Counted from the stretch's first letter, positions 14,365 to 63,414 are shown. The stretch: DNA of 64,000 bases from an uncultured Acidobacteriota bacterium (GCA_963713825.1 CAVQNG010000003.1:553794-617793); one strand, 5' to 3'. Program-made: numbers and translations. The notes: a model not told the origin generated them from the letters alone.

Positions 14365-14546
14365 GGTTCGTCCCGGGGCCTCTCGACAAGCGCAGCGCAA
14401 GAGCCATGGCAATGCTAGACAGATCCGGTTCGCAGGTGGCGGCCCGCCCTTGAAGTAGGGGAGGGGCTTGCCCCCTCCCACTGGAGCCCTCAAGGGGCTC
14501 CCCTACATTGCCGACGCCGTCCCCCTGCGAGCCACCCGGACGGATC
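14365..14546. repeat. MITE-like element, family R2 (copy 1, partly degenerate left end)
   Basis: Left end GGTTCGTCCCGGGG, right end CGAGCCACCCGGACGGATC. Conserved internal blocks CTCGACAAGCGCAGCGCAAGAGCC, CAGGTGGCGGCC and GCCGACGCCGTCCCC are shared with the copies at 51899 and 63253. Confidence 0.65.
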
Positions 14547-14571
14547 TCAATTCGAGAACGGCCCCGAGACA

Positions 14572-14606
14572 CTGAATAAGAGAACGGCCGGCAGGGGCGC
14601 CGGCCG
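14572..14606 (-). terminator. Rho-independent terminator downstream of the PCD gene
   Basis: On the minus strand, CGGCCGGC-GCCCCT-GCCGGCCG forms an 8-bp GC stem followed by TTCTCTTATT. It starts about 25 nt after the stop at 14632. Confidence 0.6.
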
Positions 14607-14631
14607 CTTGAGGATTCTCACGTATGTGATG

Positions 14632-14976
14632 TCAGTCGCTGGTGCCGCCCTCGAGGCGGTCGGCCTTGGCGGCCCAGACGAAGTCGCTTTCGGTCAGGCC
14701 GTCGATCTTGTGGGTCCAGATCTTCAAGCCTACCTTGCCCCAGGTCAGGAAGATCTCGGGGTGATGGTTCACCTCTTCCGCCAGCTCCCCGACCCGATTC
14801 GTAAAGGCGAGTGCTTCGACGAAGTTACCGAATCGATACTGCTTCTCGAGGTGATGGCTGTCCACCAATTTCCAGTCGTTCCCGAGCCGTTCGTAGAGAC
14901 CCGCCAGTTCTTCGCCTTCGAGAGGAGGTACGCCTCCCCTGCAAGGTACACAAATGCCATCCGCAAGCTCACTCAT
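14632..14976 (-). CDS. phhB: Pterin-4-alpha-carbinolamine dehydratase (PCD/DCoH)
   Basis: 114 aa. FGNFVEALAFTNRVGELAEEVNHHPEIFLTWGKVGLKIWTHKIDGLTESDF matches the PCD core, including the HHP motif. Confidence 0.9.
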   Translation of the reverse strand: MSELADGICVPCRGGVPPLEGEELAGLYERLGNDWKLVDSHHLEKQYRFGNFVEALAFTNRVGELAEEVNHHPEIFLTWGKVGLKIWTHKIDGLTESDFVWAAKADRLEGGTSD

Positions 14977-15023
14977 CCGCAGTCTCCTTCGGCTTGCCTT
15001 CGGTTCGCTGTCGCGTCACCGAT

Positions 15024-15752
15024 CTAGTTGCTGTCACTGTAGTTGACCATGGCCTGCGTCCCGTCGTCGGTAGCAGAGATGATCACCATTACCGTGCGAT
15101 CCTCAGTCTCTTGGGAAGCGATGACCTGGCCACCCTTGCCGTCGGGTCCCGAGTACTCGGTCTTCTGGACGCTCCACTCGTCGTCTTCGAGCTGCTCGAC
15201 GTAGAAAGCCAGCACGTCATCCACCGATTCCGAGGTGGTCAGTTGGAACGATCCACCCACGCCGTCGGGTGTCGACGCCGAGTAGGTGCCTGTCGTCGTG
15301 CCGCCGGGAAAGACCGGCACCCAATCCGGCAGGCTGTCCATGTCGGAGCTGCCGACTCGCATGGTCTCCCCACCATCCGTCGTCACTGTGAACAGACCCT
15401 CTTCGGGGTCGCCCGAGGCACTGAACTCCATCTCTCCCTCGTCCGTCTCGAAGCTCAGCTTGCCCTTTTCGATGTCGGCGTAGTTGACCGTGATGACCTC
15501 GCCACTGTCCTTCTCGCGAATCGTGATCGTGCCCGCATCCCGATCACTGTCCACGAGCTCGAGATCCGGGTTCATCTTGATCAACATCTCGGCCGCCGCC
15601 TCTGGATTCTCCTGAAAGTCCTCAGCGAAGTCACCGACCTTCTTGGCTACGAAGAAGCCGCTCACCGACACGATGATTGCACACACCACCAGCAGGCCAC
15701 CGCAGCCAATCGCCACCCAGGCCCACGGGCTCAGACCTTTCTTTTCGGTCAT
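15024..15752 (-). CDS. Single-pass membrane protein, unknown function
   Basis: I take the start at MTEKKGLSPWAWVAIGCGGLLVVCAIIV (ATG 15752-15750, preceded by GGAAAGGAGA). It has one TM helix followed by an acidic Thr/Gly/Asp-rich extracytoplasmic region. I recognise no family. Confidence 0.6.
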   Translation of the reverse strand: MTEKKGLSPWAWVAIGCGGLLVVCAIIVSVSGFFVAKKVGDFAEDFQENPEAAAEMLIKMNPDLELVDSDRDAGTITIREKDSGEVITVNYADIEKGKLSFETDEGEMEFSASGDPEEGLFTVTTDGGETMRVGSSDMDSLPDWVPVFPGGTTTGTYSASTPDGVGGSFQLTTSESVDDVLAFYVEQLEDDEWSVQKTEYSGPDGKGGQVIASQETEDRTVMVIISATDDGTQAMVNYSDSN

Positions 15753-15889
15753 AGGATCTCCTTTCCGCGCTGTCTCTCGAACAGAGACAAAAACTACCAC
15801 AGCCCCGTCTCGGTCCCGCCTGACGGTGAACTGGGATCGGTGGAACCGCCAGAGGCAACTGGAGCCTTCAACCTGTCGAGGTCAGGCGG

Positions 15890-16690
15890 TCAGCCCGTCG
15901 ATACCTGGTCGAGGATCGACTTTCGAAGGGACTCCGGGAGTCGATCCAAGTCGAGCTGCCGACAGGCATCGAAGGTCAGGTCGAGCGTCGACATCACCGA
16001 CTTGCAGCGCGAGCAAAGCTCATCGGGAGGGACCGGAAACTCGACCCCTCGATCGAGGGCCTCTTGCTTGGCACTCAGAAGATCCAGGCAGACTTTCTGG
16101 GAGTGATCCGGTGGCGGTGCCGCCCGCTGGGGTAGCGAGTCGGCCAATTCCTTGCGCAGCGCCAAGCGGCCACGGTGAACCCTGGTCTTGACCGTCGCCT
16201 CTTTGAGACCCAGGATGTCGGCGATCTGCGACAGAGACAACTCGGTGATGTCCTTGAGAAGCAGCGGTAGCCGCAGATGAATCGGCAGACTGGCAAGCGC
16301 CTCATCGACGCGCTCCTGAGCCTCCCTACGCAGCTGCTCATCGAGTTGGCTCTCCTCGGGAGAGGGTAGCGTCGCGACCATTGGCTGGCCCGAGGGCAAG
16401 AGCTCCGAGAGCGACTCGACCCTGGCCGGCTCGCCCGACCGCAGCCGATTGCGCCGCTGACAGATTCTCGCCGCGATCGTGTAGAGCCAGCTACTCGGCG
16501 CGGAGCGCCCTTCGAACTGATCCCATTTCCGGAAGGCCTGCAGGAAAGTCTCCTGCACCAGGTCCTCGGCTTCCTCGCTGTTGCCGCAGAGCTTCATCCC
16601 GAGGCCGTACATCCGCCCGCCCTCCTCATCCATGAGGCGTTCGAGAGCCAGATCGCGGGGCTCAGCAGCGAGTGAATCAGTATCCGTCAT
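15890..16690 (-). CDS. ECF (sigma-70 family) sigma factor with Cys/His-containing C-terminal extension
   Basis: Region 2 is EDLVQETFLQAFRKWDQFEGRSAPSSWLYTIAARICQRR. Region 4 is LLLKDITELSLSQIADILGLKEATVKTRVHRGRLALRKEL. About 75 further residues contain H-x4-C ... C-x2-C ... C. I take the start at MTDTDS (16690) because the track start at 16726 sits inside the tRNA-Asn terminator. Confidence 0.8.
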   Translation of the reverse strand: MTDTDSLAAEPRDLALERLMDEEGGRMYGLGMKLCGNSEEAEDLVQETFLQAFRKWDQFEGRSAPSSWLYTIAARICQRRNRLRSGEPARVESLSELLPSGQPMVATLPSPEESQLDEQLRREAQERVDEALASLPIHLRLPLLLKDITELSLSQIADILGLKEATVKTRVHRGRLALRKELADSLPQRAAPPPDHSQKVCLDLLSAKQEALDRGVEFPVPPDELCSRCKSVMSTLDLTFDACRQLDLDRLPESLRKSILDQVSTG

Positions 16691-16715
16691 GGGATTGGAA
16701 TCAGTCGGCCCAGGT

Positions 16716-16755
16716 CGAAAAAGCAACTGGCCGCCGGAGATAGCCCGGCGGCCAG
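16716..16755 (-). terminator. Rho-independent terminator after tRNA-Asn
   Basis: On the minus strand, CTGGCCGCCGG-GCTATCT-CCGGCGGCCAG forms a perfect 11-bp stem followed by TTGCTTTTTCG. Confidence 0.8.
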
Positions 16756-16765
16756 AAATTTGAAG

Positions 16766-16840
16766 TGGCTCCCCGGGAGGGAGTCGAACCCCCGACCAAT
16801 CGGTTAACAGCCGACCGCTCTACCACTGAGCTACCGAGGA
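16766..16840 (-). tRNA. tRNA-Asn (GTT)
   Basis: The minus strand reads TCCTCGGTAGCTCAGTGGTAGAGCGGTCGGCTGTTAACCGATTGGTCGGGGGTTCGACTCCCTCCCGGGGAGCCA. It has a 7-bp acceptor stem (one G-U), a GTT anticodon in a CT-GTT-AA loop, a TTCGA T-loop and an encoded CCA. Confidence 0.9.
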
Positions 16841-16873
16841 ATATGGGGCCTTTGAGAGGCCTTCAAAGGCGAG

Positions 16874-16902
16874 ATATTAGGAGCCGAAGTCCTCTTTGTC
16901 AA
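16874..16902 (-). promoter_or_regulatory. Sigma-70-type promoter for tRNA-Asn
   Basis: The minus strand has TTGACA (16902-16897), a 17-nt spacer, then TAATAT (16879-16874). A short hairpin CCTTTGA-N7-TCAAAGG follows before the tRNA 5' end. Confidence 0.6.
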
Positions 16903-16932
16903 TCGCTGCCTGGTGCGCAATATCCAGTCGAA

Positions 16933-18648
<1,716 letters not shown>

Positions 18649-18652
18649 GATT

Positions 18653-20425
18653 TCATTCCTCCGGGCCGCGATGCAAGGCTCTACTGAGAGCAGTCTTCTC
18701 CTCGAGCAGGGTCCGCAGACGATCATCGTCACCGGCTCGTTGCGCTTCGGAGATCTCGCCCGAGAGAACTCGCAAGCGGTGCTGCACCCAACGCCGATTC
18801 AGCTGGCCCAATGCCACACCCAGGCCGTTCGCCCCTTCAGCGATCGAACCTTCTAGCAGAAGCCGAGCCACTTGGTCAACTTCTTCGCTGTCGAGGGGCA
18901 CGCTGGCCACGACCTCTTTCACTGCTGGCCGACGACCCTCTCCGTCCCTATATAGATCACAAAAAGTGCTGTAAATATTCCTGCAAGCAGGGATCAGGAA
19001 CGCCTCCGGAGGAGGTAAGTCGTCGAACGAAGGGAGCTCTTCGTCCCCAGCCAGTAGGAGTTGCAGCGTCTGTTCTTCCAGACTTCGCACCAACTTGGGG
19101 CTTTTCTGGACATCGTCGGACGGGGCCTTCGCGTCCAGGTCCGGCTTGCCGCCGACCCTGCGCCAGAGGATCTCGACTGGCACGCCGAGCCGTTCCGAGG
19201 CCTTTTGACTGTAGCTGTATCGCAGAATGCTGTCGCGAACCGACTGCAAAAGCTCGCTCACCTGCTTTCCTGCTTGGGCTTGCAGGCGGGGGTTCTGGTG
19301 AACGGCCGGCGGAATCAAGCGCTCGAGCTCCATCAGCACAGCATCCTCTGCCTCGGTCACCGCCCCGAGGACCGCTTCCGGTCCGTCCAAAGTGCGCAGA
19401 GAATCCGGATCCTGGTCTTGGCCAAACCGCGCACGCCTTACGGTCAGCCCCTGAGAAAGGAGGAGTGGAAGAACGCGTTGAAAAGCCTGCTCGCCCGCTT
19501 CGTCCCCGTCATAGCCCACCACCACCTCGCTGGCGAAGCGACTCAGCAGCCGCGCCTGATCTTCGGTGAGAGCCGTACCCATGGTAGCCACGGTGGCATC
19601 TACCCCGGAAGCCACGGCGCCCATGACATCAAAGTAGCCCTCGACTACCAGGGCCGTGCTGCTCTCCCGAATCGCCCTCTTCGCGAGGTCCAGCCCGTAC
19701 AAGACATATCCTTTGCGGAAGGCCGCGGTCTCGTGACTGTTGATGTACTTCGCCCGATCGTCGGCCAGAGTGCGCCCGCCAAATCCCAATAGCCGACCCG
19801 AAGCCGCCCGGATCGGGAACATCAGCCGCTGACGAAAGCGATCGTAGTACTTGCCGGATTTCTGCGAGATGCCGACCAGGCCCGCTGCCTTGAGGTCGGC
19901 CAGCGGAATCCGGGGATGCAGTGCTTCGAGAAGATGAGTCCACCCATCGGGCGCATAGCCGACACCGAAACGCTCCACCAGCTCCTGCGGCATCTGTCGC
20001 TTCTCGAGATAGGCCAGCGTTTCGGGCGACCGCTTCAAGGCGTCGATGAAGAACTGCGCGGCCGCCTCGAGTGCCGGCTCGAGATCCGGCTCCCGCGGGC
20101 CCCCTCTCTGCTGGCGCGGCGGCGGCAAAGGAACACCATAGCGACGAGCCAGCGTCTCGATGGCAGCGGGGAAGTCGTCGCCACTGAGTAGCATGTGGAG
20201 CTTGATGGCGTCACCACCACGGCCACAGCCGAAGCAATAGAACAGCCCCTGGACCGGGTCGACGCTGAACGAAGGGGTCTTCTCCCGATGCAACGGGCAA
20301 CGACCCATGTGCCGTCGCCCGCTCTTGCGGAGACGGGTGTGCTCGCCGGCGATATCGACGATATCCACCACGTCGCGCACCGCCTGCACGAACTGCGGCG
20401 TGAGTTGGATGTTGCTCAACGCCAT
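18653..20425 (-). CDS. dnaG: DNA primase
   Basis: 590 aa with the zinc-ribbon [34 protein letters not shown] and a Toprim core VVEGYFDV...VGYDGDEAG. Confidence 0.95.
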
Positions 20426-24098: not shown

Positions 24099-24341
24099 GA
24101 TCCGTCCTCCTATCGAGTGCACTCGAGTGCACGGAATTCGAAGGTACCACAGGCCCCTGGCTCCCACAAGCTCGAAACAGCCTGAAGCAAGCCACGCGAC
24201 CACTGCGTTACGACTATCCTAAACCTCTCATCCTCAAGGAGTTTGGTGGTGTGTTACCTTGACACCGCCAACACGGCCAAGCATACAATAGGCGTCTACG
24301 AAAAAACCGTTTTCGACTTCGAAATTTGCTGGAGGATCCGC

Positions 24342-26192
24342 ATGTCTTCGCAGGAGTCTTTTGACGAACTCGAGCCCAAGATCATGGGCCTCGTAGAAGA
24401 GGCTATCCGAGAGGTCAAAGAGGAGTACCTGCGGCGCCTGCAGGACACTCGAAACGTGATCGATGAACTCCTCGGCGAGGCGGAGGAGGCCATGGAAGCG
24501 GGCGCCGTAGCTGAGGCCGATATCGCCGCTGTCGTCGCACCCGAGCCGGTCGAGCTTCCGGAACCCCCGAAACACTACCTGCCCGACCTGCATACAGCGG
24601 TGACCAATCTGGACCGTTGTCGGACCCAGGACGAGATTCTCTCGAGCCTGGTGGCGAGCGCCGGTTCCTTTGCGTCCCGTGCCGCCCTGTTCCTGACTCG
24701 CGAAGACGGGCTCCAAGGTTGGAGCAGTCACGGTTTTGCAGCGGGAGACGAGGCTTTCGAGTCTCTCATCCTCGAATACGACGAAGGTTCCCCTTGGGGT
24801 CGCCTTTCCGAAGGACGCGGGGTCATCGAACTCGATGCTGACGAATGCACGGAGCTCTGTAGCCGCATCGACAACAGTAGTCCTGTCAATGGCGCCCTCG
24901 TTCCAATCGTTCTCAGAGATCACCTTGCAGTGGCTCTCTACGCCGACCAGGACGAAGAGGACGACACGATCGGTCTCTTTGCACTGCAGCTGCTGGCCTA
25001 TGTAGCAGCCCAGGCGCTGGAGACTCTGCCACTTCGCGAGCGTTCTTCCACCGCGACCCTTCGACTCGCGACTGAAGCGCCGTACGGAGAGCCTGTCCTC
25101 TCCCTGTGGCAGTTCGTCGCTCCGCAGGCGGACGTCTCGATCGTGGAAGAGATCGAGGCGGCAGCGGAACCTGCCATCGAGGAAGAGGCCGAAGATCTCT
25201 ATGCCGCAGAACCGGTCGAGGAGGTCGAGGAAGCCTACGAAGAAGAAGTCGCTGAGGTCGTCGATTTCGACGCAGTCGAGGACGAGGTCGAGGTGACCGA
25301 AGAGGCGCCTGAGGAGACCGCAGAAGCTGTCGCCTTCGAAGAGGTCGAGGAAGCTTACGAGGAAGACGTCGAGGAGGCCGTCGACTTCGAAGAAGCCGCG
25401 GTGGCCGCAGAAGCACCGGAGGTGACCGCAGAGGCTGTCGCCTTCGAAGAGGTCGAGGAAGCTTACGAGGAAGAGGTCGCTGAGGAGGAGGCGGAAGCGG
25501 CTGAAGCCACTGACCTCGAAGAGGCGGAGGAGGCAGAAGCCGAGACGGCCGAGGAAGCGCTCGAAGAAGCGGTGGCCGAAGACGAAGCGGAATTGGCAGA
25601 GGCTGTCGACCTCGAAGAGGCGGAGCAAGCCTACGAAGAAGAGGTCGCTCGAGACGAGGTGGAGATTGCTACCGAAGCCGACCTACAGCCTGCCGAGGAC
25701 ACCGGATTCGAAGTCGAGCCGGCGGCCGAGCAGGAATGGGACACGCCCGCAGAGCACGAAGAAGTGCCTGCCATGGAAACCGCCAGCGATGAGATCGAGG
25801 CGCCACCCATGGAACCTGAGGTCGCAACCGAACCAGCCCCGGCAGTCGCCATCGACGGGGCTGAGATCAGTCCTCCCGAAGACGCTCAGGGACCGGGCTG
25901 GGCCTTCACCACCAACCGATTCAGCGCTGACAATGCCGGTGAGGCTGTGCATGAGGAAGCACGTCGACTGGCCCGCCTGCTAGTGACCGAGATCAAGCTC
26001 TACAACGAAGAGCAGGTGGAAGCTGGAAGGCGCAATCGCAACATCTACGAGGTCCTTCGCGAAGACATCGACCGGTCGCGTCAGATCTATGAAGAGAGAA
26101 TCGACGACACCGTCCGCACTGAAGCCGACTACTTCCACGACGAGTTGGTGAGGATTCTCGCTGCCGGCGAGTCGGAAATCCTGGGCCTGTGA
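24342..26192 (+). CDS. GAF-like domain protein with hyperacidic repeat region and conserved basic/acidic C-terminal helix domain
   Basis: Start at ATG 24342, five nt after GGAGGA. The N-terminal part (ILSSLVASAGSFASRAALFLTREDGLQGWSSHGF) looks GAF-like. About 190 residues are almost pure E/A/V/D with internal repeats (AEAVAFEEVEEAYEE occurs twice). The C-terminus is EARRLARLLVTEIKLYNEEQVEAGRRNRNIYEVLREDIDRSRQIYEERI. Confidence 0.65.
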   Translation: MSSQESFDELEPKIMGLVEEAIREVKEEYLRRLQDTRNVIDELLGEAEEAMEAGAVAEADIAAVVAPEPVELPEPPKHYLPDLHTAVTNLDRCRTQDEILSSLVASAGSFASRAALFLTREDGLQGWSSHGFAAGDEAFESLILEYDEGSPWGRLSEGRGVIELDADECTELCSRIDNSSPVNGALVPIVLRDHLAVALYADQDEEDDTIGLFALQLLAYVAAQALETLPLRERSSTATLRLATEAPYGEPVLSLWQFVAPQADVSIVEEIEAAAEPAIEEEAEDLYAAEPVEEVEEAYEEEVAEVVDFDAVEDEVEVTEEAPEETAEAVAFEEVEEAYEEDVEEAVDFEEAAVAAEAPEVTAEAVAFEEVEEAYEEEVAEEEAEAAEATDLEEAEEAEAETAEEALEEAVAEDEAELAEAVDLEEAEQAYEEEVARDEVEIATEADLQPAEDTGFEVEPAAEQEWDTPAEHEEVPAMETASDEIEAPPMEPEVATEPAPAVAIDGAEISPPEDAQGPGWAFTTNRFSADNAGEAVHEEARRLARLLVTEIKLYNEEQVEAGRRNRNIYEVLREDIDRSRQIYEERIDDTVRTEADYFHDELVRILAAGESEILGL

Positions 26193-31829: not shown

Positions 31830-33097
31830 GCGAACTGTTGATCACCAACCTGTCCGAAATCGCCACACCGATTGGTAACGAGGCTCTGACCGGAGTCGAT
31901 CAAGGCAAGGTTCGTCGCTTGTCAGGGGTCGAAGTCTTGTGCCGAGACGAAGAGATCGCAGGCGTCGGGACGAGGGACGAGATCGAGCGCCAAATGGGCT
32001 CCCTGGAGGCGGTCGAGCGACTCGATGCCGATGGCGGCACCCTGGTGCCGGGGTTCGTGGACCCGCACACCCACCTGCCCTGGGCGGGCAGTCGCGAGGC
32101 AGAGTTCGCTCAGCGCCTGGCGGGTAAGACCTACATGGAGATCGCCGCCGAGGGCGGGGGAATACTGTCCACCGTGCGCGCCACGCGTGAGGCTTCGGAA
32201 CCGGACCTCGCCGAGAGAGTCCTGGATCGCCTCGACCTGATGCTCACCCATGGCACGACTACCGCCGAGGCCAAGAGTGGCTACGGTCTGACCCTCGACG
32301 ACGAGTTGAAGCAACTGCGGGCAATCCGCCACGCCTCCGAGGAGCATCCGGTCGACCTGATACCGACGCTTCTCGCGGCTCATGAGACTCCGCCCGAGTA
32401 TCGCCAACAGAGGGACCGCTATCTCGACATCGTCTGCCAGGAGATCATCCCCGCCACCTCCGAGGCTGGGCTCGCCCAGTTCTGCGATGTCTTCTGTGAG
32501 GAGGGCGTCTTCACGGCCGAGGAATCCCACCGCGTGCTGACAGCCGGTGCAGAGAATGGCCTGGCCCCGAGACTTCACGCCGACGAGTTTGTCGACTCAG
32601 GCGGCGCCGAGTTGGCGGCCGAGCTCAAGGCCCTGTCGGCCGATCACCTCACCGCAGTCTCTCCGGCCGGCGTCGAGGCGATGGCAGCCACCGGCGTTAC
32701 GGCGGTTCTGCTGCCGGGAACCAGCTTCTTCCTCATGAAGCACAAATACGCACCGGCTCGTAGACTCCTCGAGGCGGGCGTGCCGATTGCCCTGGCCACC
32801 GACTGTAATCCGGGATCCTCCTTCACCGAGTCGGTGCCGATGGTCTTCGTACTGGCGGTTTACGAGTTGGGGCTATCGATCGAAGAGGCCTTGACCGCGG
32901 CGACACTGAATGCCGCCTGCTGCCTGGACCTCGGTGAGCGCATCGGATCGATCGAAGTCGGCAAGCAGGCCGACCTGGTAGTTCTCGCCGCACCGAACCT
33001 GCTGCACCTCGCCTACCACTACGGCATCAACCTGGTGAGCGCCGTCGTCAAGAGCGGCAAAGTCGTGCATCAGGCCAGCAACTACAAGCACCTATAA
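31826..33097 (+). CDS. hutI: Imidazolonepropionase
   Basis: I take the start at MSELLITNL (ATG 31826, ATGA overlap with the upstream stop). GFVDPHTHLPWAGSREAEF, EAKSGYGL, RLHADEF, LSADHL and ALATDCNPGSS fit the amidohydrolase HutI pattern. Confidence 0.9.
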   Translation: MSELLITNLSEIATPIGNEALTGVDQGKVRRLSGVEVLCRDEEIAGVGTRDEIERQMGSLEAVERLDADGGTLVPGFVDPHTHLPWAGSREAEFAQRLAGKTYMEIAAEGGGILSTVRATREASEPDLAERVLDRLDLMLTHGTTTAEAKSGYGLTLDDELKQLRAIRHASEEHPVDLIPTLLAAHETPPEYRQQRDRYLDIVCQEIIPATSEAGLAQFCDVFCEEGVFTAEESHRVLTAGAENGLAPRLHADEFVDSGGAELAAELKALSADHLTAVSPAGVEAMAATGVTAVLLPGTSFFLMKHKYAPARRLLEAGVPIALATDCNPGSSFTESVPMVFVLAVYELGLSIEEALTAATLNAACCLDLGERIGSIEVGKQADLVVLAAPNLLHLAYHYGINLVSAVVKSGKVVHQASNYKHL

Positions 33098-33099
33098 AG

Positions 33100-33246
33100 A
33101 GGGGGCATAGGGGCGTAGGGGCTTAAGGGCTTAGGGGCGCGGGAGGGGGGGGGGCCACTGCCCTAAAGGTCAGCCGGAGCGAGCGACGGCTGCCTCAACC
33201 CCCAAGCCCTCGAGGATCGGCCGGAGGTACGACCGGCCGCCTCAAC
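33100..33246. repeat. Intergenic mosaic repeat, family R1 (locus 4)
   Basis: GGGGGCATAGGGGCGTAGGGGCTTAAGGGCTTAGGGGCG G-tract, CCACTGCCCTAAAGG, CCTCAACCCCCAAGCCCTCGAGG box and a GGCCGG-N8-CCGGCC hairpin. It lies between convergent genes. Confidence 0.75.
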
Positions 33247-33249
33247 TCT

Positions 33250-34923
33250 CTAGGCCTGCGGATAGCTCGGGCGAATGTCCACCGGCACGTCGTCCAGGCG
33301 TCCGATCGCTTCCAGTAGCGGCGCCGATGCCTGGCCGTAGGTCTCGAGGAACTTCGCGGTTCCCTCGTAGTCGCCAGTCGCCTGCAACATCAGCATCTCG
33401 TTCAGCAGGACCTCGATCGCGGCGGGGAACTTCTCCGACACCGCGTGGAATCGCCCTTCGGCATCGACTTCCAGAGCACCCTTTTCCAGCAGATAATTGA
33501 ACTGCGAGACCACGCCTTGCCCGTGCGCCTCGTGGACACCGAAGCGCGCTGCCCGGAACAACCCCGCCACATACGTCGCTTCCAGGGTCTCGCGCAGCTC
33601 CTTCGGCATCACACCCTTGTCGACCAAGGCGAGGATGTTATAGACGCCCATGACGTCGGCCTTGGCCTCCTCCATCGTGGAGTAGAGCTCCTTGAGCTCC
33701 AGTCGAACCTCGGTGTCGCGTCCGTCGAGTTGGATGAGACCCGGCCCCAAGCCGTGGCTCAACTCGTGATGCAGACTCTCGCTGAAGAACGCATCGAAGG
33801 AGACGCGGGACAGATCTTCCGGCGCCAGGACACGCTCGGCGATCGGCATCAGGATCTTGTCGAACTTGGCTCGCAGAATGTTGCGCAGCATCACCTTCTT
33901 CGATCCCTTCGCCTCGCGCACCCGCTCGTCGTTGGGAAGATTGAAGGCCAGGGTCTGGACTCCGGCCTTGGTGTCTCCACCAGCGAACAGCACATCGACG
34001 ACTCGGATCGGGCTTTCCGTGCCGCGGTCCAGGTTCTTGTGCTCCTCCGGAATGGGCAGGTTCATCTCCAACCACGGCAATTCCTGTTTGAAGCCATCAA
34101 GGGCCGCCGACTCCGCGGGCAAAGCCACGGTGACGAAGGCCTCGTAGGCAGCTTTGTAGCCGAAGAGGCTGTCCTCGTAGGTCTCATAGGGACCGATCGT
34201 CACCTCGACGGGCGAGTCCAGATCCATCCAAGCCACGTCACTGTCGTAGTAATCGTCGGTCTCGAAAGCGTCAGCCCGTAGGGATAGAAAGCTCTGAAGT
34301 GAGGCGTTGTCGGTTGCCGCGGCCGCCTCCCGCAGGTTGGCGATCGCCGGCTCCAGCCACTGGTGGTACTCCTGAGCGTAGGGCACTGCGACCAGTCCGC
34401 CGTCCTGCCGGCGAATCACCGTGAACTCAGAGGTAAAGGCCTCTTCATCCTCTGGGTGCTCGGCGAGCCAGGTCTCGAACTCACTCTGCGTCATATCTTC
34501 TGGGTAGTAGCCGGCCCCTGGTGGGTGCGGCTTGGCCCCGATAAAAGGCGCCATCTCTTCCAGGCGGTCCCACGGACCGAAGTTGACGCTGAAGTAGGCG
34601 CGGCCTGCATCCATCTCGGCACCCTGGGCGTCCTCGAGCTCCGCTTGCAGCGCCGGGTTACCCTGCCAAACCTGACGCAGAAAGATTTCGTCCATCGAGC
34701 GGGCCGCCTGGACCAGGATCTCCAGGACTCGAAGCTCGTCCTCGGACAAGCTCGAAACGTCGGCGACCAACTCGGTCGGCTCGAAACGGGCCAGCCTTTC
34801 GGCGACGTTGGCAGCCACCTCCAGGCCCTCTCCGGCTGCAGGACCAGGCCCCTGCTCGGCCTTCGGGGCGCACCCAGCGAGAACCGCGACGATCAAGACT
34901 CCACTGATTAGCCTCATGTTCAT
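33250..34923 (-). CDS. Lipoprotein, probable M49 (DPP III)-like zinc hydrolase
   Basis: 557 aa with lipobox LAGC. HHELSHGLG and the downstream EEAKADV resemble the HExxGH / EExxAE motifs of family M49. Confidence 0.55.
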   Translation of the reverse strand: MNMRLISGVLIVAVLAGCAPKAEQGPGPAAGEGLEVAANVAERLARFEPTELVADVSSLSEDELRVLEILVQAARSMDEIFLRQVWQGNPALQAELEDAQGAEMDAGRAYFSVNFGPWDRLEEMAPFIGAKPHPPGAGYYPEDMTQSEFETWLAEHPEDEEAFTSEFTVIRRQDGGLVAVPYAQEYHQWLEPAIANLREAAAATDNASLQSFLSLRADAFETDDYYDSDVAWMDLDSPVEVTIGPYETYEDSLFGYKAAYEAFVTVALPAESAALDGFKQELPWLEMNLPIPEEHKNLDRGTESPIRVVDVLFAGGDTKAGVQTLAFNLPNDERVREAKGSKKVMLRNILRAKFDKILMPIAERVLAPEDLSRVSFDAFFSESLHHELSHGLGPGLIQLDGRDTEVRLELKELYSTMEEAKADVMGVYNILALVDKGVMPKELRETLEATYVAGLFRAARFGVHEAHGQGVVSQFNYLLEKGALEVDAEGRFHAVSEKFPAAIEVLLNEMLMLQATGDYEGTAKFLETYGQASAPLLEAIGRLDDVPVDIRPSYPQA

Positions 34924-44174: not shown

Positions 44175-44390
44175 ATGAAGACTTGGCTACTCGAGATCCC
44201 GTGGTCACTGCTCATCCTCGCTTGCCTGACCCTCGGCCTGGCACCCTTTGCTCCTCCCCATATCGTGGAGAAGCTGCGCATGCTCTTTCGCGGCACACTG
44301 GTGCGGCCCATCGACTGGCTCGATCTGGTGTTCCACGGAATTCCCTGGCTGCTCCTCATCCTCAAAGCCTGGGCCACCGCCACGAAATAG
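44175..44390 (+). CDS. Small two-TM membrane protein, unknown function
   Basis: 71 aa, MKTWLLEIPWSLLILACLTLGLAPFAPPHIVEKLRMLF...GIPWLLLILKAW. The upstream part of track ORF 43812..44390 is antisense to the phosphatase gene. Confidence 0.5.
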   Translation: MKTWLLEIPWSLLILACLTLGLAPFAPPHIVEKLRMLFRGTLVRPIDWLDLVFHGIPWLLLILKAWATATK

Positions 44391-44395
44391 AGGAC

Positions 44396-44572
44396 AGGGC
44401 GTAGGGGCGTAGGGGCGTAGGGGCGTAGGGGCGTAGAAGACAATACCCAATAGCTCAAGACCTCAGTGCCCCTCAAGCCCCCAAAGGCAGGCCGTAGGAA
44501 CGCCGGCCTCCTCAACCCCCAAGCCCTCAAAGAACGTCGGGCGGTGAGCCGGACGCCTCAACCCTCAAGGTT
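44396..44572. repeat. Intergenic mosaic repeat, family R1 (locus 5) with (GGGGCGTA)n tract
   Basis: About five tandem GGGGCGTA units at 44396-44435. Then CCTCAAGCCCCCAAAGG and CCTCAACCCCCAAGCCCTCAAAG boxes and the hairpin CGGGCGGTGAGCCGGACG. It lies between convergent genes. Confidence 0.8.
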
Positions 44573-51872: not shown

Positions 51873-51898
51873 GCCCTACATAGCCACCAACGAGCGGA

Positions 51899-52058
51899 GG
51901 TCCGTCCGGGTGGTTCGCAGGCGGACGGCGTCGGCTACTCAGACTGCAACGGGCGGGCCGCCACCTTGTCACGTCATCGCGCCTCATCTCTTGTGTTCTG
52001 CGATGGTCCTTGCGCTGCGCTCGACGTGGCACCCCCTGTCGAACCACCCGGACGAACC
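51899..52058. repeat. MITE-like element, family R2 (copy 2, inverted relative to copies 1 and 3)
   Basis: Perfect 19-bp terminal inverted repeats: GGTCCGTCCGGGTGGTTCG (51899-51917) and CGAACCACCCGGACGAACC (52040-52058). The internal blocks are the reverse complement of those in the other copies (GCGTCGGCTACTCAG, CTTGCGCTGCGCTCGAC). Confidence 0.75.
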
Positions 52059-52078
52059 TCTGGCACCGGTGGTCGCAT

Positions 52079-52117
52079 TGAGGCAGTGGGGCACTGAAGG
52101 CGTAGGGGCTTAGGGGA
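52079..52117. repeat. R1 fragment (locus 6) abutting R2 copy 2
   Basis: TTGAGGCAGTGGGGCACTGAAGGCGTAGGGGCTTAGGGG. Confidence 0.55.
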
Positions 52118-52291
52118 CAGAAGACTCGTAGGTACAGAAGTACAAGGCCGTGCCCAGGGTTCGGCGTGGGGACCTCCAGGGGGTTCTTGCAGCGGAAGGG
52201 AGGATAGCCCCCTGGGGGCCCCACGGTGAACGCCTCCTTGGAAGAACGGTTTGGGTTGACGCACAAAAGGGCCGCAGAGGCGCCGGTCGAA

Positions 52292-56710: not shown

Positions 56711-56852
56711 GAGGGAGGGGGTCCCACTGCTCAAGGAAGCGGCCGGCAGAGGCGCCGGCCGCTTCTGTCCTCAAAGATCAGCCGAGGCACGCCGGCTGCC
56801 TCAACCCCAAGCCCTCAGAGAACGCCCGGCGGTGAGCCGGGCGCCTCGACCC
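56711..56852. repeat. Intergenic mosaic repeat, family R1 (locus 7)
   Basis: GAGGGAGGGGGTCCCACTGCTCAAGG, GC hairpin GCGGCCGGC-N6-GCCGGCCGC, CCTCAACCCCAAGCCCTCAGAG box and hairpin CGCCCGGC-GGTGA-GCCGGGCG (56823-56843). Confidence 0.7.
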
Positions 56853-57811: not shown

Positions 57812-57848
57812 ACACAGATTCGCTGTTGCAAGGCGTCAGGATCTCGAG

Positions 57849-57950
57849 ACCCCTACGCCCTGAAGCCCCTGAGCCTCTATTGCCCAGGACCCAAGCCCTC
57901 AAGGACCGGCCGAGACAAAGTCCGGCCGCCTCAACCCCCAAGCCCTCATT
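57849..57950. repeat. Intergenic mosaic repeat, family R1 (locus 8)
   Basis: CCCCTACGCCCTGAAGCCCCTGAGCC tract, CAAGCCCTCAAGG, hairpin CCGGCC-N10-GGCCGG-like (GACCGGCCGAGACAAAGTCCGGCCGC) and CCTCAACCCCCAAGCCCTCA. It lies between convergent genes. Confidence 0.7.
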
Positions 57951-57953
57951 GCC

Positions 57954-59501: not shown

Positions 59502-59831
59502 TTTTGTCTCCACCCGAGCGAGCTTAGCAGGGTGGTTCATATTTCTGCAGCGCGGCATCCCACATTCTTGAATCTGCACCAGCCCATGAAAGTCACCACC
59601 ATAAGTTGCTTCTTTACAGCTATTTACACTCCCATCTCTCGATGGGCCGGCGACAGGGTCCGTCACTTCGGAGGAGAAATTCTTCAAGATTCTGCACCTG
59701 CACTAGGAAGTTCCAGTCACCTGAATCCCTGGGTACACGCTTCACGAAATTGAATCCGTGTCCCGAATCGTCAATGTTCCTCTTGCTCCTCAGCCAGATG
59801 CGGCCAGTCGTTCGCTCGAGCTTTCGGCGTT

Positions 59832-59846
59832 TGGCACCCTCCTTGC
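59832..59846 (+). promoter_or_regulatory. Sigma-54 (-24/-12) promoter candidate upstream of the giant OMP gene
   Basis: TGGCAC-CCTCC-TTGCT is an exact match to TGGCAC-N5-TTGCW. It sits about 110 nt upstream of the ATG at 59956, in a visibly less GC-rich intergenic region. Confidence 0.55.
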
Positions 59847-59955
59847 TCTAGGCCCACCTGACGAGAGCGATTCACAGCGCGCAGATCCACGTGGAGTTCC
59901 GTTCTCGCGAGCAGCACGCAGCCACATCGATCCAACTACCCAAGGAGGATCACCC

Positions 59956-62900
59956 ATGAGAACAAACAGATGGTTATGGCCGCTAGCGTTGGCATTTGCA
60001 CTACTGCTGAGCACAGCGGCAATCACAAATGCACAAGAGGAGACCGGGAACATTTACGTCCAGGTCACCGACACCGCAGGACAAACTCTGCCAGGCGCCA
60101 GTGTTGAAATGGTGGGTGGCGGAGCGCCCAGACTCGGGATCACCAGCGCGCAGGGTGAAACGCGTTTCCTCGGTCTGGCCCCAGGCAATTACAGCCTGAA
60201 GGCCACCCTGGACGGTTTCTCCACCGTTGAGTACCCGAACGTCAACGTCAGGGTCGGCCGTAACACCACGATCCAGGTGCAGCTCAGTGCTGCCATTGGT
60301 GAGGTGATCACGGTGACTTCTGAGAGCCCACTGTTGGATGAGCGCCGGCTCACCGCCGGTACCACGATCAGTCAGGTCGAGCTCGAGAGCATTCCGAGCG
60401 CGCGTGACCCGTGGGCCATCGTGCAGCAGGCTCCCGGAGTCATGACCGACCGCATCAACGTCGGTGGTAACGAGAGCGGCCAGCAGGCCGTCTTCCGTGG
60501 CCAGGCCAACAACGGCGACGAGAACGACTTTCTTGTCGACGGTGTCCAGATCACGGACATGTCCGCCATCGGCTCCTCACCGACCTACTACGACTTCGAC
60601 CAGTTCTCCGAGATTCAGCTGGCAACCGGTGGTCCCGATGTAAGCAAGGGCGCAGCCGGTGTCTCGGTCAATATGGTCACCAAGCGTGGTACCAACGAGT
60701 TCCGCGGCACGGCACGCTTTCTGCTGACGGATGCCGCTGGTTACTTCGGCGCGCTCGAAGCCGCGGATCCGGGTTACTCGGACAGCGACCTCGGACCGGG
60801 CCAGGACAACTACTCCGGTGACACGGTCGATCGGATTCAGGAATTCGGCTTCGAGGCCGGTGGTCCGGCGTGGCGGGATCGCGTCTGGCTGTGGGCTTCG
60901 TGGGGTCAGAACGACATCAATCGGATCGTCGGTAGTGGCCAGTCCGACCGCACGATCCTCGAGGGCACCGCGGTCAAGTTGAACGCCCAGTTCACCGCGG
61001 CCAACTCCTTCGTTGCCTCCTTCAACAACGGCGACAAGGTCAAGTTCGGCCGTGGTGCGTCGCCGGACAACGATCCGTCGTCGACCCGTAACCAGCGTGG
61101 TCCGACGGGGATCACCAAACTCGAGGACACGCACGTCTTCGGCTCGAACCTGTTCCTGACCGGTCAGTACTCCTTCGTCGATGGCGGTTTCTCGCTGACG
61201 GCGCTGGGCGGCTCAGGCCCAGACCTTCCCGCGATTCCGTTCCCTGGCGGCGAAAAGTACACCAACGGCGACGGTTTCGTGACCAACAACTCTACCGGCG
61301 GCAACAGCCGTCCGACCGAGGAGTTCAAGATCGACGGTTCCTACTTCTTCACCACCTCGAGCTTGAACCACGAGATCAAGTTTGGTGGTCGAACGCGCGA
61401 AGCCTCGACCGAGAGCGCCTGGTCGTATCCTGGCCGCAACATCTTCCACTACGACGGCACCTATGCCGGCGTGGCGGGCGACAGGGAACTCGGTGCCTCG
61501 CTCGGACTGCCTGTGGCCCGTGCGGACGACTACGCTGCGGTCTACGCCTACCGTCAGGGTCCCGTACCTGTCATCACGAACTACGATTCGTTGTGGGTGC
61601 AGGACACGATGACGATGGGCTCCTGGACCTTCAACGTCGGCTTCCGTTGGGACGATCAGTCGGGTGAGAACACGGCTGGCGTCGTGGATGCCAACCTCGG
61701 CTTCCCGAATGAAATGCCGGCCCTCGACTTCGCGGGCAACAACGCCGACGGCCTCAACTGGTCGAGTATCACTCCTCGCCTGGGTGTCACTTACGCCCTC
61801 GGTGAGGAGCGCAAGACACTCATCCGCGGTAGCTTCTCGCAGTTCCCGGATGTCATGTCGTTGACCAACATCAGCCGCGTGAACCCCTTGTCCGGACAGT
61901 TGGCGTACATCGTCTTCGTCGACGATCCGGCTGGTTTCCCGGGCTTTTACGATGACGGCGAACAGTACGCAGTGGCAGCCGGCTACTGGGGCTACAACCC
62001 GAACGACCCGGCGGCTCTGTCGTCCTCGAACAAGAACGATCCGGGCATGGATGCTCCGCTCACCAACGAGTTGATCCTTGGTGCCGAGCATGCCTTCCTG
62101 CCTGAGTTCGTGGTCAGCGGTACCCTCACCTGGCGTAAGGTCACGGATGTACAGGACTTCCAGCGGTTGTTCACGCCGCTCGGCAACGACAACGCGACAC
62201 CGCAGACGATTCCGGCCAGCGAGTACATCACGGACCCGACACCACTCGTGATCACGATCCCGGGTATTGGCGGCCCTGCTGCAACCGAGTCGTATACCAC
62301 CTACTCGGCGGATCCGTCGAAATGGAACTACACAGGTGGTCAGCTGTTCACCAACGGTGATCGTGAGATCGACTACCTCGGTGCAACCATCGGCTTCACG
62401 AAGCGACTGGCGAACCAGTGGATGATGCGTGGCTACGTCCAGTACAACTTCGACGAGTCCTGGAGCGTGCCGGGTAGCTACTTCAACAACAACGATCCCA
62501 ACCGAGTGCTGCCTGGTGTGGCGTCCGGTGCTGTCATCGATGGCTCGACCTACGTCATCCAGTCGACCGGTTCCGGCCGCGACGAGTCCTGGCTGCAATC
62601 GGAATGGGGTTGGAACTTGAACGGCATGTACCAGGTGGCGCCCGACAGGCCCTGGGGCTTCAACGTCGCCGCCAACATGACCGGCCGTCAGGGCTATCCG
62701 ATTCCGTACTACCGGAACAGAACCGGTCTGGACGGAATTTCACGGTCGATTCAGGCTGCACAGAACATCGACGACTATCGCATGGACGATCTGTTCTCGA
62801 TGGATATGCGGCTCGAGAAAGAGTTCAGGACGGCGGGCAACCTCGGCCTGACCTTCTCGATCGACGCCTTCAATATCTTCAACAACGGCGTCGTGCTGGA

Positions 62901-62997
62901 CCGCAACCGCAACACCACCTCCGGCAACGTGGGGTGGATCAGTACCTCGCTGGCACCGCGGGTCTTCCGACTCGGTGTCCGCTTGAACTGGCGGTAA
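59956..62997 (+). CDS. Large outer-membrane beta-barrel protein with N-terminal carboxypeptidase-regulatory-like domain (TonB-dependent-receptor-like)
   Basis: I take the start at MRTNRWLWPLALAFALLLSTAAITNAQ after AAGGAGGA. GNIYVQVTDTAGQTLPGASVEMVGGG...GNYSLKATLDGF is CarboxypepD_reg-like. A plug-like segment follows (VTSESPLLD...GVMTDRINVGGNESGQ), and the C-terminal strand is VFRLGVRLNWR. Confidence 0.8.
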   Translation: MRTNRWLWPLALAFALLLSTAAITNAQEETGNIYVQVTDTAGQTLPGASVEMVGGGAPRLGITSAQGETRFLGLAPGNYSLKATLDGFSTVEYPNVNVRVGRNTTIQVQLSAAIGEVITVTSESPLLDERRLTAGTTISQVELESIPSARDPWAIVQQAPGVMTDRINVGGNESGQQAVFRGQANNGDENDFLVDGVQITDMSAIGSSPTYYDFDQFSEIQLATGGPDVSKGAAGVSVNMVTKRGTNEFRGTARFLLTDAAGYFGALEAADPGYSDSDLGPGQDNYSGDTVDRIQEFGFEAGGPAWRDRVWLWASWGQNDINRIVGSGQSDRTILEGTAVKLNAQFTAANSFVASFNNGDKVKFGRGASPDNDPSSTRNQRGPTGITKLEDTHVFGSNLFLTGQYSFVDGGFSLTALGGSGPDLPAIPFPGGEKYTNGDGFVTNNSTGGNSRPTEEFKIDGSYFFTTSSLNHEIKFGGRTREASTESAWSYPGRNIFHYDGTYAGVAGDRELGASLGLPVARADDYAAVYAYRQGPVPVITNYDSLWVQDTMTMGSWTFNVGFRWDDQSGENTAGVVDANLGFPNEMPALDFAGNNADGLNWSSITPRLGVTYALGEERKTLIRGSFSQFPDVMSLTNISRVNPLSGQLAYIVFVDDPAGFPGFYDDGEQYAVAAGYWGYNPNDPAALSSSNKNDPGMDAPLTNELILGAEHAFLPEFVVSGTLTWRKVTDVQDFQRLFTPLGNDNATPQTIPASEYITDPTPLVITIPGIGGPAATESYTTYSADPSKWNYTGGQLFTNGDREIDYLGATIGFTKRLANQWMMRGYVQYNFDESWSVPGSYFNNNDPNRVLPGVASGAVIDGSTYVIQSTGSGRDESWLQSEWGWNLNGMYQVAPDRPWGFNVAANMTGRQGYPIPYYRNRTGLDGISRSIQAAQNIDDYRMDDLFSMDMRLEKEFRTAGNLGLTFSIDAFNIFNNGVVLDRNRNTTSGNVGWISTSLAPRVFRLGVRLNWR

Positions 62998-63030
62998 GTC
63001 GTCCATTCAAACCAGGCCACACGCTTCACC

Positions 63031-63062
63031 GCCGGGGGGGCAACTCCCCGGCGCTTTTTGTT
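63031..63062 (+). terminator. Rho-independent terminator after the OMP gene
   Basis: GCCGGGG-GGGCAACT-CCCCGGC is followed by GCTTTTTGTT. A second perfect hairpin GCCTAGCC-GAT-GGCTAGGC follows at 63067-63085. Confidence 0.75.
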
Positions 63063-63088
63063 CCCGCCTAGCCGATGGCTAGGCAGTC

Positions 63089-63241
63089 AAGGGTTGAGGC
63101 GTCCGGTCGTTCCTTCCGGACGATCTATGAGGGCTTGGGGGTTGAACCGGCCGCACTCCGTGTCGGCCGGCCTTTGGGGCTTGGGGGAACAGCCGACAAA
63201 CAACCCTCGCGCCCCTACTGTCCTATGCCCTTACGCCCCCC
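63089..63241. repeat. Intergenic mosaic repeat, family R1 (locus 9)
   Basis: Two hairpin units of about 46 bp (GGGTTGAGGCGTCCGG...CCGGACGATCTATGAGGGCTT and GGGGGTTGAACCGGCCG...CGGCCGGCCTTTGGGGCTT), then CCCCTACTGTCCTATGCCCTTACGCCCCCC. It directly abuts R2 copy 3. Confidence 0.75.
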
Positions 63242-63252
63242 TTGGTGCCAAA

Positions 63253-63414
63253 GGTTCGTCCGGGTGGTTCGGCAGGGGGGGCTCGACAAGCGCAGCGCAA
63301 GAGCCGTCGAAGTTCACGGCCCATCCGGCGCGCCGGAGAGCGCAGGTGGCGGCCAAACCCGTCAAAGCCTGAGTAGCCGACGCCGTCCCCCGGCGAACCA
63401 CCTGGGCGCGGACC
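63253..63414. repeat. MITE-like element, family R2 (copy 3)
   Basis: Left end GGTTCGTCCGGGTGGTTCG, right end CGAACCACCTGGGCGCGGACC. Internal blocks are CTCGACAAGCGCAGCGCAAGAGCC, CAGGTGGCGGCC and CTGAGTAGCCGACGCCGTCCCC. Confidence 0.75.

Follow-up and report, generated by a model that had tools for sequence, protein, structure and literature searches.

A dispersed non-coding repeat of a Thermoanaerobaculia clade with a covarying, strand-specific predicted fold

The 64,000-nt stretch of DNA analyzed here (hereafter the window, with positions counted from its first letter) comes from an uncultured bacterium of the Acidobacteriota and contains three copies of a short intergenic element, R2. The element encodes no protein and is a dispersed repeat specific to one lineage, a clade of the Thermoanaerobaculia (Acidobacteriota). 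An earlier note on this DNA had offered two readings of it, a miniature inverted-repeat transposable element (MITE) or a family of structured small RNAs (sRNAs), and neither carries over whole. Copies are gained and lost at orthologous sites as the first would have it, but no target-site duplication was found at the boundaries tried and no transposase in about 1.1 Mb of flanking DNA, and the arms are asymmetric; the second suits the fold evidence better, but the decay and turnover of R2 fit less well with fixed sRNA genes. R2 is very unlikely to be a classical, cut-and-paste MITE. We favor, with modest confidence, the view that it is a structured, strand-specific and probably RNA-level module within a mosaic of intergenic repeats, spreading non-autonomously.

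Sequence comparison and a covariance model both place R2 at the three locations first reported. Copy 2 (51897-52060, minus strand) is an intact short form of 164 nt and the top model match in the window (189.7 bits, E = 1e-31), copy 3 (63251-63416, plus strand) is a short form with a diverged 3' arm (118.3 bits, E = 5.5e-19), and copy 1 (14363-14548, plus strand; model bounds 14354/14363-14548) is a degenerate long form (61.4 bits, E = 7e-9). The three are homologous, and at E = 1e-31 to 7e-9 their occurrence is far above chance. Of the two copies to which "slightly diverged ends" had been attributed, copy 3 has its diverged 3' arm and copy 1 has lost about 13 nt of its 5' arm.

In a common orientation all three copies share the leader GGTGCCA, the 5' arm GAGGTTCGTCCGGGTGGTTCG and the 3' arm CGAACCACCCGGACGGACCTC, and the internal blocks of R2 are GCGCAGCGCAAG, AGGTGGCGGCC and GCCGACGCCGTCC. 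Blocks are indeed shared between copies as had been claimed, except that the first one listed, CTCGACAAGCGCAGCGCAAGAGCC, is confined to copies 1 and 3; copy 2 carries CGTCGAGCGCAGCGCAAGGACC, which represents another subtype of the same helix (P3, CACGUC/GACGUG in copy 2 and GCUCUC/GAGAGC in copy 3). The motif GGTGCCA(G/A)AGG had been seen before the same end of each copy, and its GGTGCCA part lies at 14356-14362 (plus strand), at 52061-52067 (minus strand, directly 5' of copy 2) and at 63244-63250 (plus strand). Further out on the same side, again as described, each copy has a C-rich R1 octamer tract, at 14317-14345 (plus strand) for copy 1, 52078-52116 (minus strand, C-rich on the strand of R2) for copy 2 and 63214-63240 (plus strand) for copy 3. 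R2 is thus a multi-copy, non-coding family with complementary ends, its short form measuring 164-165 nt and its long form about 208 nt, with no conserved open reading frame (ORF) in the ORF listing of the window or on inspection of the aligned copies. Its G+C content is 63-72%, and it ends in GAGG...CCUC, being neither A+T-rich nor TA-ended.

In our structural model, the two terminal inverted repeats (TIRs) of the earlier note pair with each other as the closing helix P1, which is 21 bp long. In copy 2 the 5' strand of P1 is the right-hand TIR (52040-52060, minus strand), which pairs with the left-hand TIR as 3' strand (51897-51917, minus strand). These arms had been called perfect repeats; as DNA they are complementary at 18 of 19 positions, GGTCCG standing opposite GGTTCG, which gives one G.U pair in the minus-strand RNA. 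The minimum free energy computed for copy 2 is −91.7 kcal/mol (z = −4.85), a stability equaled by none of 200 shuffled sequences.

Inside P1, an A-U pair (U.G in five sequences) precedes P2, a G5 strand with a C5 strand, and P1 and P2 together are 93% paired across 31 sequences. At the inner end of P2 lies a three-way junction that has just three linker nucleotides; one of its arms is P3-P4-P5, with a variable apex, and the other is P6. P3 has 9 positions, among them a conserved C.A, and its two central positions are A-U/C-G, U-A/C-G or tandem G.A/A.G depending on the subtype. P4 joins GCGC with GCGC, where either of two upstream GCGC words may pair with the single downstream one, and P5 is a small hairpin whose loop is the most variable of all, although that variation is only moderate and a semi-conserved AG.GCAC motif is kept. 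P6 joins GGUG.CGGC with GCCG.CGCC, and is capped by a 21-nt loop, or by two hairpins in the long form. In copy 1 the 44-nt long-form insert (14455-14506, plus strand) consists of two hairpins closed by GUAG/CUAC in place of the P6 apex; 13 of the 31 genome copies carry the insert at the same position, with loops CUUGM and GCAA or GUGA.

Covariation supports this predicted fold in two separately retrieved sets of sequences, which answers a check proposed at the outset. The genome set, 31 copies from five metagenome-assembled genomes (MAGs) and the window, was aligned with MAFFT, blind to structure. Pairing holds in 90.9% of its 1558 pair cells, a share that falls to 37-52% once partners are shifted by 1-3 columns, and 0/500 shuffles match the real alignment in pairing, in double-change cells or in covariation score. 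The metagenome set (71 distinct sequences), whose alignment was fitted to the covariance model and so leans toward structure, has 91.3% of its cells paired and 12 pairs changed on both sides, again with 0/500 shuffles. Both sets therefore have about 91% of pair cells paired versus 36-52% with slid partners, controls that, like the shuffles, only partly remove the relatedness of the sequences. RNAalifold recovers the closing stem and P6 from the aligned copies, and mutual information picks out column pairs 44:108 and 45:107; a pairing of column 44 with column 197 given by RNAalifold was discarded for 44:108, which covaries perfectly. This first pair of P3 is U-A in 17, C-G in 7 and G-C in 6 genome copies with no mismatch, and U-A in 36, C-G in 27 and G-C in 6 sequences of the metagenome set. 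Subtypes of P3 differ by swaps of the whole helix (GCUCUC/GAGAGC, CACGUC/GACGUG, CUCGUC/GACGAG). The tandem G.A/A.G of the commonest subtype (columns 48:104 and 49:103 of alignment A2) is replaced by Watson-Crick pairs in the others, and the conserved C.A (A2 columns 46:106) is found in 28 of 29 sequences in A2 and in 65 of 71 in alignment A5.

The predicted fold is also strand-specific. G.U cells outnumber A.C cells by 138 to 42 in the genome set and by 317 to 96 in the metagenome set, and the single conserved C.A accounts for 28 and 65 of the A.C cells, respectively. Because the 5' arm is rich in G and U, so that nearly any transition in the 3' arm still pairs, the asymmetry between the arms is a cleaner test of strand than the G.U count. 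In a set with neither arm fixed by retrieval, variant cells number 27 in the 5' arm, spread over 9 columns, and 86 in the 3' arm, spread over 15, an approximately threefold lower variability of the 5' arm, and 72 of the 86 variant cells in the 3' arm are transitions, mostly retaining G.U or A-U pairing. The threefold difference in a G/U-rich arm points to constraint on one strand, and the asymmetry suggests that the ends of R2 behave as a single-strand helix rather than as symmetric, protein-binding TIRs. Scores under the covariance model run from 110 to 190 bits for the forward strand and from 20 to 50 bits for the reverse. The constraint most likely acts at the RNA level: details typical of RNA, namely a loop that changes from GCAA to GUGA and so preserves the GNRA form, and tandem G.A pairs alternating with Watson-Crick pairs in P3, favor RNA over single-stranded DNA without proving it.

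R2 extends well beyond the window, so that the lack of further copies, which the earlier note had named as grounds for refutation, does not apply. An exact-pattern scan of a species-representative genome collection returned 50 stretches, of which about 31 are true copies, told by a constant span of 65 nt; the remainder are chance matches in coding sequence of unrelated bacteria. All true genome copies belong to five MAGs, which carry the label Thermoanaerobaculia or Acidobacteriota; one of these MAGs has at least 17 copies. A second pattern with other blocks fixed (the 5' arm and GCCNNCNCCGTCC) gave at least 120 metagenome contigs among the matches listed, and the metagenome contigs carrying R2 are sediment-type. 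Both retrieval patterns fixed some R2 blocks. The covariance model was built from the genome set and searched in the window, the MAG loci and 80 + 40 metagenome loci. The window and MAG loci together gave 35 forward-strand hits at E < 1e-8, the first 80 metagenome loci gave 81 copies and the remaining 40 gave 44. In total it recognizes at least about 160 full-length copies in the window, the MAG loci and the metagenome contigs among the matches listed. The window is syntenic with a Thermoanaerobaculia MAG contig (L018) at 78-84% nucleotide identity and 99% identical to several metagenome contigs, which places it within the R2-bearing Thermoanaerobaculia clade. IMG/VR viral contigs contained no true R2 copy, with a single chance pattern match at 6.8 bits.

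No known RNA family accounts for these copies in Rfam 15, where at gathering scores the whole window yields only two tRNAs. At E values up to 10 the matches around copies 2 and 3 are at chance level; the highest-scoring is sR22, whose 18.8 bits fall short of its gathering score of 40. This C/D-box-like hit was dropped, the CUGA box being absent from the long forms, and likenesses to 5S rRNA, RNase P, SRP, Y RNA, a T-arm and the hammerhead are limited to short words, with no match to their Rfam models. We found no account of R2, nor of repeats or non-coding RNAs in Thermoanaerobaculia, in the searchable literature.

Comparison of orthologous sites shows that R2 is gained and lost. At 44389-44441 (minus strand) the window has an octamer array directly after a stop codon, without R2; the orthologous spacer of L018 (3700-3863) contains an array, the leader, R2 and a 31-nt trailer, about 219 nt extra, between genes that are 78-84% identical. 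At ~8520-8545 (minus strand) the window retains an octamer-like remnant, GGGGCAGTGGGGCGCAGG, again without R2, and two other loci (L089, at 1262-1424, and L107) have R2 at the orthologous position in synteny of 82-88% identity. An array or its remnant is thus kept at both empty sites. At the site of copy 1, locus L147 carries an intact short form of a different P3 subtype with no octamer array, in flanks 86-97% identical to the window. Elsewhere R2 has been kept at the same site across loci (L006/L019/L104/L053 and L030/L036/L124/L130). Within the first of these groups it is more conserved than the neighboring coding sequence: R2 identities are 99.4, 99.4 and 95.7%, while coding sequence next to it reaches 87-97% and the spacer downstream 82-96%.

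Decayed copies are also present, including internal deletions (for example L013, 4278-4397) and solo fragments, of which 13-15 keep the exact 3' end and only 2-3 are solo 5' fragments. The boundaries of R2 are polar, with a sharp 3' end and a ragged 5' end: between non-orthologous copies, homology ends 0-5 nt from the 3' end of P1 in about half of the pairs, and on the 5' side it extends 6-250 nt further, across the leader and the octamer array and in many cases a companion hairpin repeat, R3. Multi-copy dispersal, gain and loss at orthologous sites and decayed copies are all observed, and filled and empty sites, decay and orthologous copies conserved across species together show a dispersed repeat, a pattern that a fixed set of sRNA genes would fit less well.

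Signs of a conventional transposition mechanism were sought around these copies. No target-site duplication was found in 96 copies for k = 3-6 with left boundaries from 0 to −40 and right boundaries from 0 to +30 (41 x 31 boundaries); the best boundary gave 3-mers in 8/96 copies, close to a mismatched-pair control. Neither filled/empty comparison has a duplication. No transposase, reverse transcriptase or recurrent mobility gene turned up among the 749 proteins predicted from roughly 1.1 Mb of DNA surrounding R2 copies, in flanks of about 8 kb, and a transposase linked to R2-type arms, which the earlier note had proposed to look for, was likewise lacking there. Protein clusters that recur near R2 are ordinary families (kinases, hydratases, RND pumps and similar), and the genes between paired R2 copies encode acyl-CoA dehydrogenase, glyoxalase, tricorn protease and a hydrolase, with no mobility gene. 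Searches of the fetched loci with nhmmer and with BLAST using thirds of the element found no longer element bounded by R2 arms.

The association of R2 with R1 that had been suggested, namely that the two form one composite element, holds in most copies, where they stand in a fixed 8-nt register. Over 96 copies the leader GGTGCCA (positions −7 to −1) is 74-92% conserved, positions −17 to −10 read TGCCYYCA, and peaks of C at −23, −31 and −39 show that the octamers stay in register with R2. At least two tandem octamers lie within 64 nt in 60 of 98 copies by a strict pattern, and in a larger share by eye; the leader is conserved also in copies without an array. R1, with the unit (CCCCTACG/CCCCTAAG)n, forms seven arrays in the window (8565-8593, 14317-14345, 33095-33147, 44389-44441, 52078-52116, 57850-57879 and 63214-63240), and since four of the seven have no R2, the two parts are separable.

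Gene orientation around R2, counted with a crude codon-position gene caller, is uneven. The gene 5' of R2 is co-directional in 58 cases and opposite in 29, and the gene 3' of R2, usually 20-130 nt off, is convergent in 55 and co-directional in 38. This pattern fits elements that survive at the 3' ends of genes and are read within intergenic RNA. Neighboring genes are functionally unrelated and of a housekeeping kind (kinases, acyl-CoA dehydrogenase, RND pump, tRNA synthetase, peptidases). Copy 2 is directed into the 3' end of a convergent gene, and copy 3 ends 92 nt upstream of a co-directional gene that starts at 63508. Consensus scans found no intrinsic terminator at the element for copies 2 and 3.

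Taken as an RNA-level module, R2 would have a transcript that runs in the direction giving a C-rich octamer tract, for the most part within intergenic or 3' untranslated region (UTR) RNA of the upstream gene. It might serve there as a stable RNA module that protects or processes an RNA end, or a specific protein might bind its conserved junction, and its non-autonomous spread could depend on an enzyme whose gene lies elsewhere or on recombination between repeats of the mosaic.

Several points weigh against this reading. A single-stranded DNA intermediate accounts for strand-specific pairing equally well. Overall identity between copies is high, many pairs are invariant, and for P4 and most of P6 the evidence is conservation; the retrieval patterns themselves held some blocks fixed, and the high identity could partly reflect recent spread or gene conversion instead of purifying selection. 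One third of copies face a divergent upstream gene, and a consensus scan found no sigma-70-like promoter 5' of copies 2 and 3. A canonical intrinsic terminator at 63030-63053, a 10-bp stem followed by CTTTTTGTT, stands right after the gene at 59758-62997 and before the R0/R1/R2 cluster, separating that gene from copy 3, which may therefore lie outside a 3' UTR. Strongly conserved unpaired nucleotides would not be needed by a simple RNA-end hairpin, and transcription itself, its strand and the RNA ends are deduced from sequence.

One alternative takes R2 for a single-stranded DNA mobile element like the REPINs or IS200/IS605, in which the fold would be recognized as DNA by a tyrosine (HUH) transposase encoded once elsewhere and would have no role as RNA. 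Transposition of the IS200/IS605 type leaves no target-site duplication, in keeping with what is seen at R2. We regard this alternative as unlikely: the arms GAGGUUCGUUCGGGUGGUUCG and CGAACCACCCGGACGGACCUC are not self-palindromic as REPs are and have no GTAG or CGTC head, the asymmetric three-way-junction core with its conserved unpaired bases is unlike two inverted REPs and a spacer, and the GCAA to GUGA change and tandem G.A pairs are more typical of RNA. It would nevertheless account for the filled and empty sites, the clustering with hairpin repeats R0 and R3 in mosaic arrays and the lack of a linked transposase in the flanks, which is expected with a single-copy RAYT. Strand-specific pairing with compensatory changes belongs to REPINs likewise, whose hairpins form in single-stranded DNA or mRNA (PMC3116915).

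It is similarly doubtful that the copies are independent genes for trans-acting sRNAs of about 165 nt, each with its own promoter and with variation in the P5 and P6 apices setting specificities. Such genes would explain the conserved, covarying fold, the subtypes common to several genomes and the greater conservation of orthologous R2 than of flanking coding sequence. The conserved leader (GGTGCCA, with TGCCYYCA at −17 to −10), present even without an array, would be a candidate non-sigma-70 promoter, and the third of copies that lie behind a divergent gene are those that read-through would be unable to transcribe. However, consensus scans found no promoter-like or terminator-like signals at the element ends, the supposedly variable loop is moderately variable with its AG.GCAC semi-conserved, and the family includes decayed copies, solo ends and internal deletions. 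Presence/absence or subtype replacement at orthologous sites of close relatives would be unusual for sRNA genes that are needed.

A somewhat less probable possibility is that R2 is the RNA of a new kind of non-autonomous mobile element copied through its structured transcript, as a bacterial SINE-like retroelement or in some other RNA-templated way, by an enzyme encoded elsewhere, landing beside octamer arrays. The RNA-like, strand-specific fold, the sharp 3' and ragged 5' ends, the excess of solo 3' over solo 5' fragments (about 13 to 3), the lack of target-site duplication and transposase and the arrays at both empty sites are all compatible with copying through RNA, and exclude nothing.

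The MITE reading in its classical form, an insertion-sequence deletion derivative that a DDE transposase would bind at the TIRs and move in double-stranded form, we consider improbable. The hallmarks compared were TIRs, target-site duplication, a short non-coding body (under about 200-300 bp) in many copies, a parent insertion sequence or transposase with matching ends, filled and empty orthologous sites and A+T-rich sequence with TA ends (PMC2229807). In line with these, R2 is a small element that encodes no protein and occurs in many copies, its ends of about 20 bp are complementary, some of its sites are filled in one genome and empty in another, and at six loci an inverted solo 3' arm 200-290 nt upstream of a full R2 makes up a unit of about 500 bp. 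Yet duplications reach at most 8/96 copies for 3-mers, about 1.1 Mb of flanks hold no transposase, the internal helices covary, and the arms evolve asymmetrically, their changes keeping wobble pairing on one strand only. R2 is also G+C-rich without TA termini, unlike most bacterial MITEs (PMC2229807). A cis-regulatory leader (riboswitch or attenuator) of the downstream gene, which a structured, intergenic element such as copy 3, 92 nt before its co-directional gene, might bring to mind, is highly improbable and in effect ruled out because the downstream gene is mostly convergent (55/93), the neighboring genes being functionally unrelated and copy 2 pointing into the 3' end of a convergent gene.

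REP, ERIC and Correia elements are known mainly from Proteobacteria and a few Firmicutes, and their spread and roles are debated. R2 would seem to work most like the ERIC, Correia, YPAL, CIR and REPIN elements, from which the three-way-junction core, the in-register octamer fusion and the polar, 3'-defined boundaries set it apart. Like the ERIC (IRU) elements of enterobacteria, which are imperfect palindromes of 127 bp, R2 is intergenic, non-coding, multi-copy and present or absent at orthologous sites. ERIC elements reportedly (Wilson and Sharp are said to have described this in 2006) have longer and shorter forms that arise by internal insertion or deletion, and R2 has such forms as well. 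The ERIC transcript also folds into a long stem-loop, as that of R2 would, and the effect of ERIC on neighboring mRNA depends on orientation (PMC2229807). Unlike R2, ERIC has TA ends and target-site duplications; the two are unrelated in sequence, and R2 is G+C-rich, forms an asymmetric three-way junction in place of a near-palindrome and is fused to an octamer array.

The REPIN/REP elements (with their RAYT, or TnpA-REP, proteins) and BIME mosaics resemble R2 in forming a hairpin from complementary ends with compensatory changes (PMC3116915), in having no linked transposase, in their mosaic intergenic arrays and in persisting at orthologous sites while also turning over. R2 differs in being twice as long, with a complex conserved core, and in having arms that are not palindromic REPs and no GTAG/CGTC head, the hallmarks given in PMC3733652. 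Correia (NEMIS) elements of Neisseria are, like R2, non-coding and intergenic, about 100-160 bp long, and their ends, some 24 bp each, pair in the RNA; they lie in transcribed intergenic regions, and their RNA stem-loops are RNase III targets that affect neighboring mRNAs (PMC2229807). They have TA target-site duplications, an IHF site and internal promoters, none of which is seen in R2, and R2 in turn has covarying internal helices. YPAL (RU-2, 168 bp, Yersinia) and CIR (Caulobacter, Brucella) are similar to R2 in size and, like it, not A+T-rich and without TA ends, and RNA models of CIR have a conserved multi-arm secondary structure (PMC2229807). YPAL differs from R2 in its variable target-site duplications and CIR in its methyltransferase site, and neither has a tie to an octamer array or a sequence relation to R2. 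On these comparisons R2 represents an undescribed family of structured, non-autonomous intergenic repeats.

Its host lineage, the Thermoanaerobaculia, is poorly studied and found here in sediment-type metagenomes. If R2 RNA is expressed, it would be a candidate new class of RNA, with about 160 natural variants at hand for structural work. If instead R2 moves by way of a single-stranded or RNA intermediate, it would offer a tractable case of how non-coding elements colonize the intergenic DNA of bacteria. The repeats matter for annotation too, as R2 and its companions account for spurious ORFs and mark intergenic turnover and synteny breaks in these MAGs.

The octamer tract has features of its own. 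The complementary strand of R1, (GGGGCGTA)n, has the form of a G-quadruplex motif, and in the RNA sense R1 is C-rich and G-poor like a Rho utilization (rut) site. The STRR heptamers of heterocystous cyanobacteria, said to have been described by Mazel et al. in 1990, are reportedly short C/G-rich tandem units forming many intergenic arrays per genome; R1 is likewise made of short, C/G-rich tandem intergenic units, but these are octamers and stand in fixed register with a structured element. We know of no link between STRR and a structured element. A sigma-54 promoter suspected by eye on the opposite strand of the leader (TGGCAC...GGCAA) was rejected, as the spacing is GG-N11-GC rather than N10 and TTGC is missing. 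A second type of octamer, (CCCAGGAC)n, lies 3' of R2 in 29 of 102 relatives (for example L056, L091, L115 and L033), preceded by a semi-conserved trailer, yACGAGA-N3-4-GGTC; it is absent at the three window copies.

R3, the hairpin repeat of about 80 nt (GGGTTCGGCGTGGGG...CCCCACGGTGAACGCC) met above, occurs in the window at 52155-52235, where it gives a weak covariance-model hit, and elsewhere at L006 5912-5993, L019 4401-4480, L018 4065-4154 and other loci. BLAST finds 66 R3 copies in the fetched loci, 47 of them near an R2, and 37 of these 47 lie less than 250 nt 5' of R2 in one relative orientation. The fold of R3 is stronger on the strand opposite to the R2 sense (−58 versus −43 kcal/mol). 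Since the R3-R1-R2 block of the window (51896-52225, about 330 nt) is 90% identical to that at the non-orthologous locus L006, the three can be copied as one unit. Beyond R3, inverted solo copies of the last 22-35 nt of R2 with the trailer lie 200-290 nt 5' of a full R2 at six loci (L164 1673-1696, L066 4369-4391, L056 1763-1784, L108 4815-4848, L036 2424-2458 and L069 212-236), so that each pair spans about 500 bp and has true inverted ends.

The hairpins of the R0 modules are rich in G+C and have no T-run, and the spacer GAGGGCTTGGGGGTTGA lies between them. In the window they lie at 8444-8544, 9800-9938, 14207-14294, 33154-33257, 44467-44564, 56723-56852, 57890-57949 and 63090-63187. They are often in tandem, with five repeats of a 46-nt period in L049 (1590-1830), reminiscent of the REP clusters of BIMEs. 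As the organism uses terminators with a T-run, like that at 63030-63053, these T-less hairpins are not ordinary terminators. Between two closely related MAGs, 97-98% identical, a synteny break or a 124-nt indel falls exactly at the repeat cluster 5' of R2 (L030 6530 versus L036 2422; L006 5750-5914 versus L019 4362-4402), so the mosaic repeats mark sites of rearrangement.

Two further repeats in the window lie in ORFs. Three tandem units of about 650 bp at 11889-13515, 80-99% identical over the 300 nt compared, lie within a 1337-aa ORF (9944-13957, minus strand), which on account of these units would encode a repeat-domain protein. At 25223-25702, degenerate 72-120-nt repeats rich in GAG/GAA/GCC fall in two ORFs on opposite strands (24234-25628, minus; 24243-26192, plus), and on the plus strand they are predicted to encode an acidic, Glu/Ala-rich repeat region.

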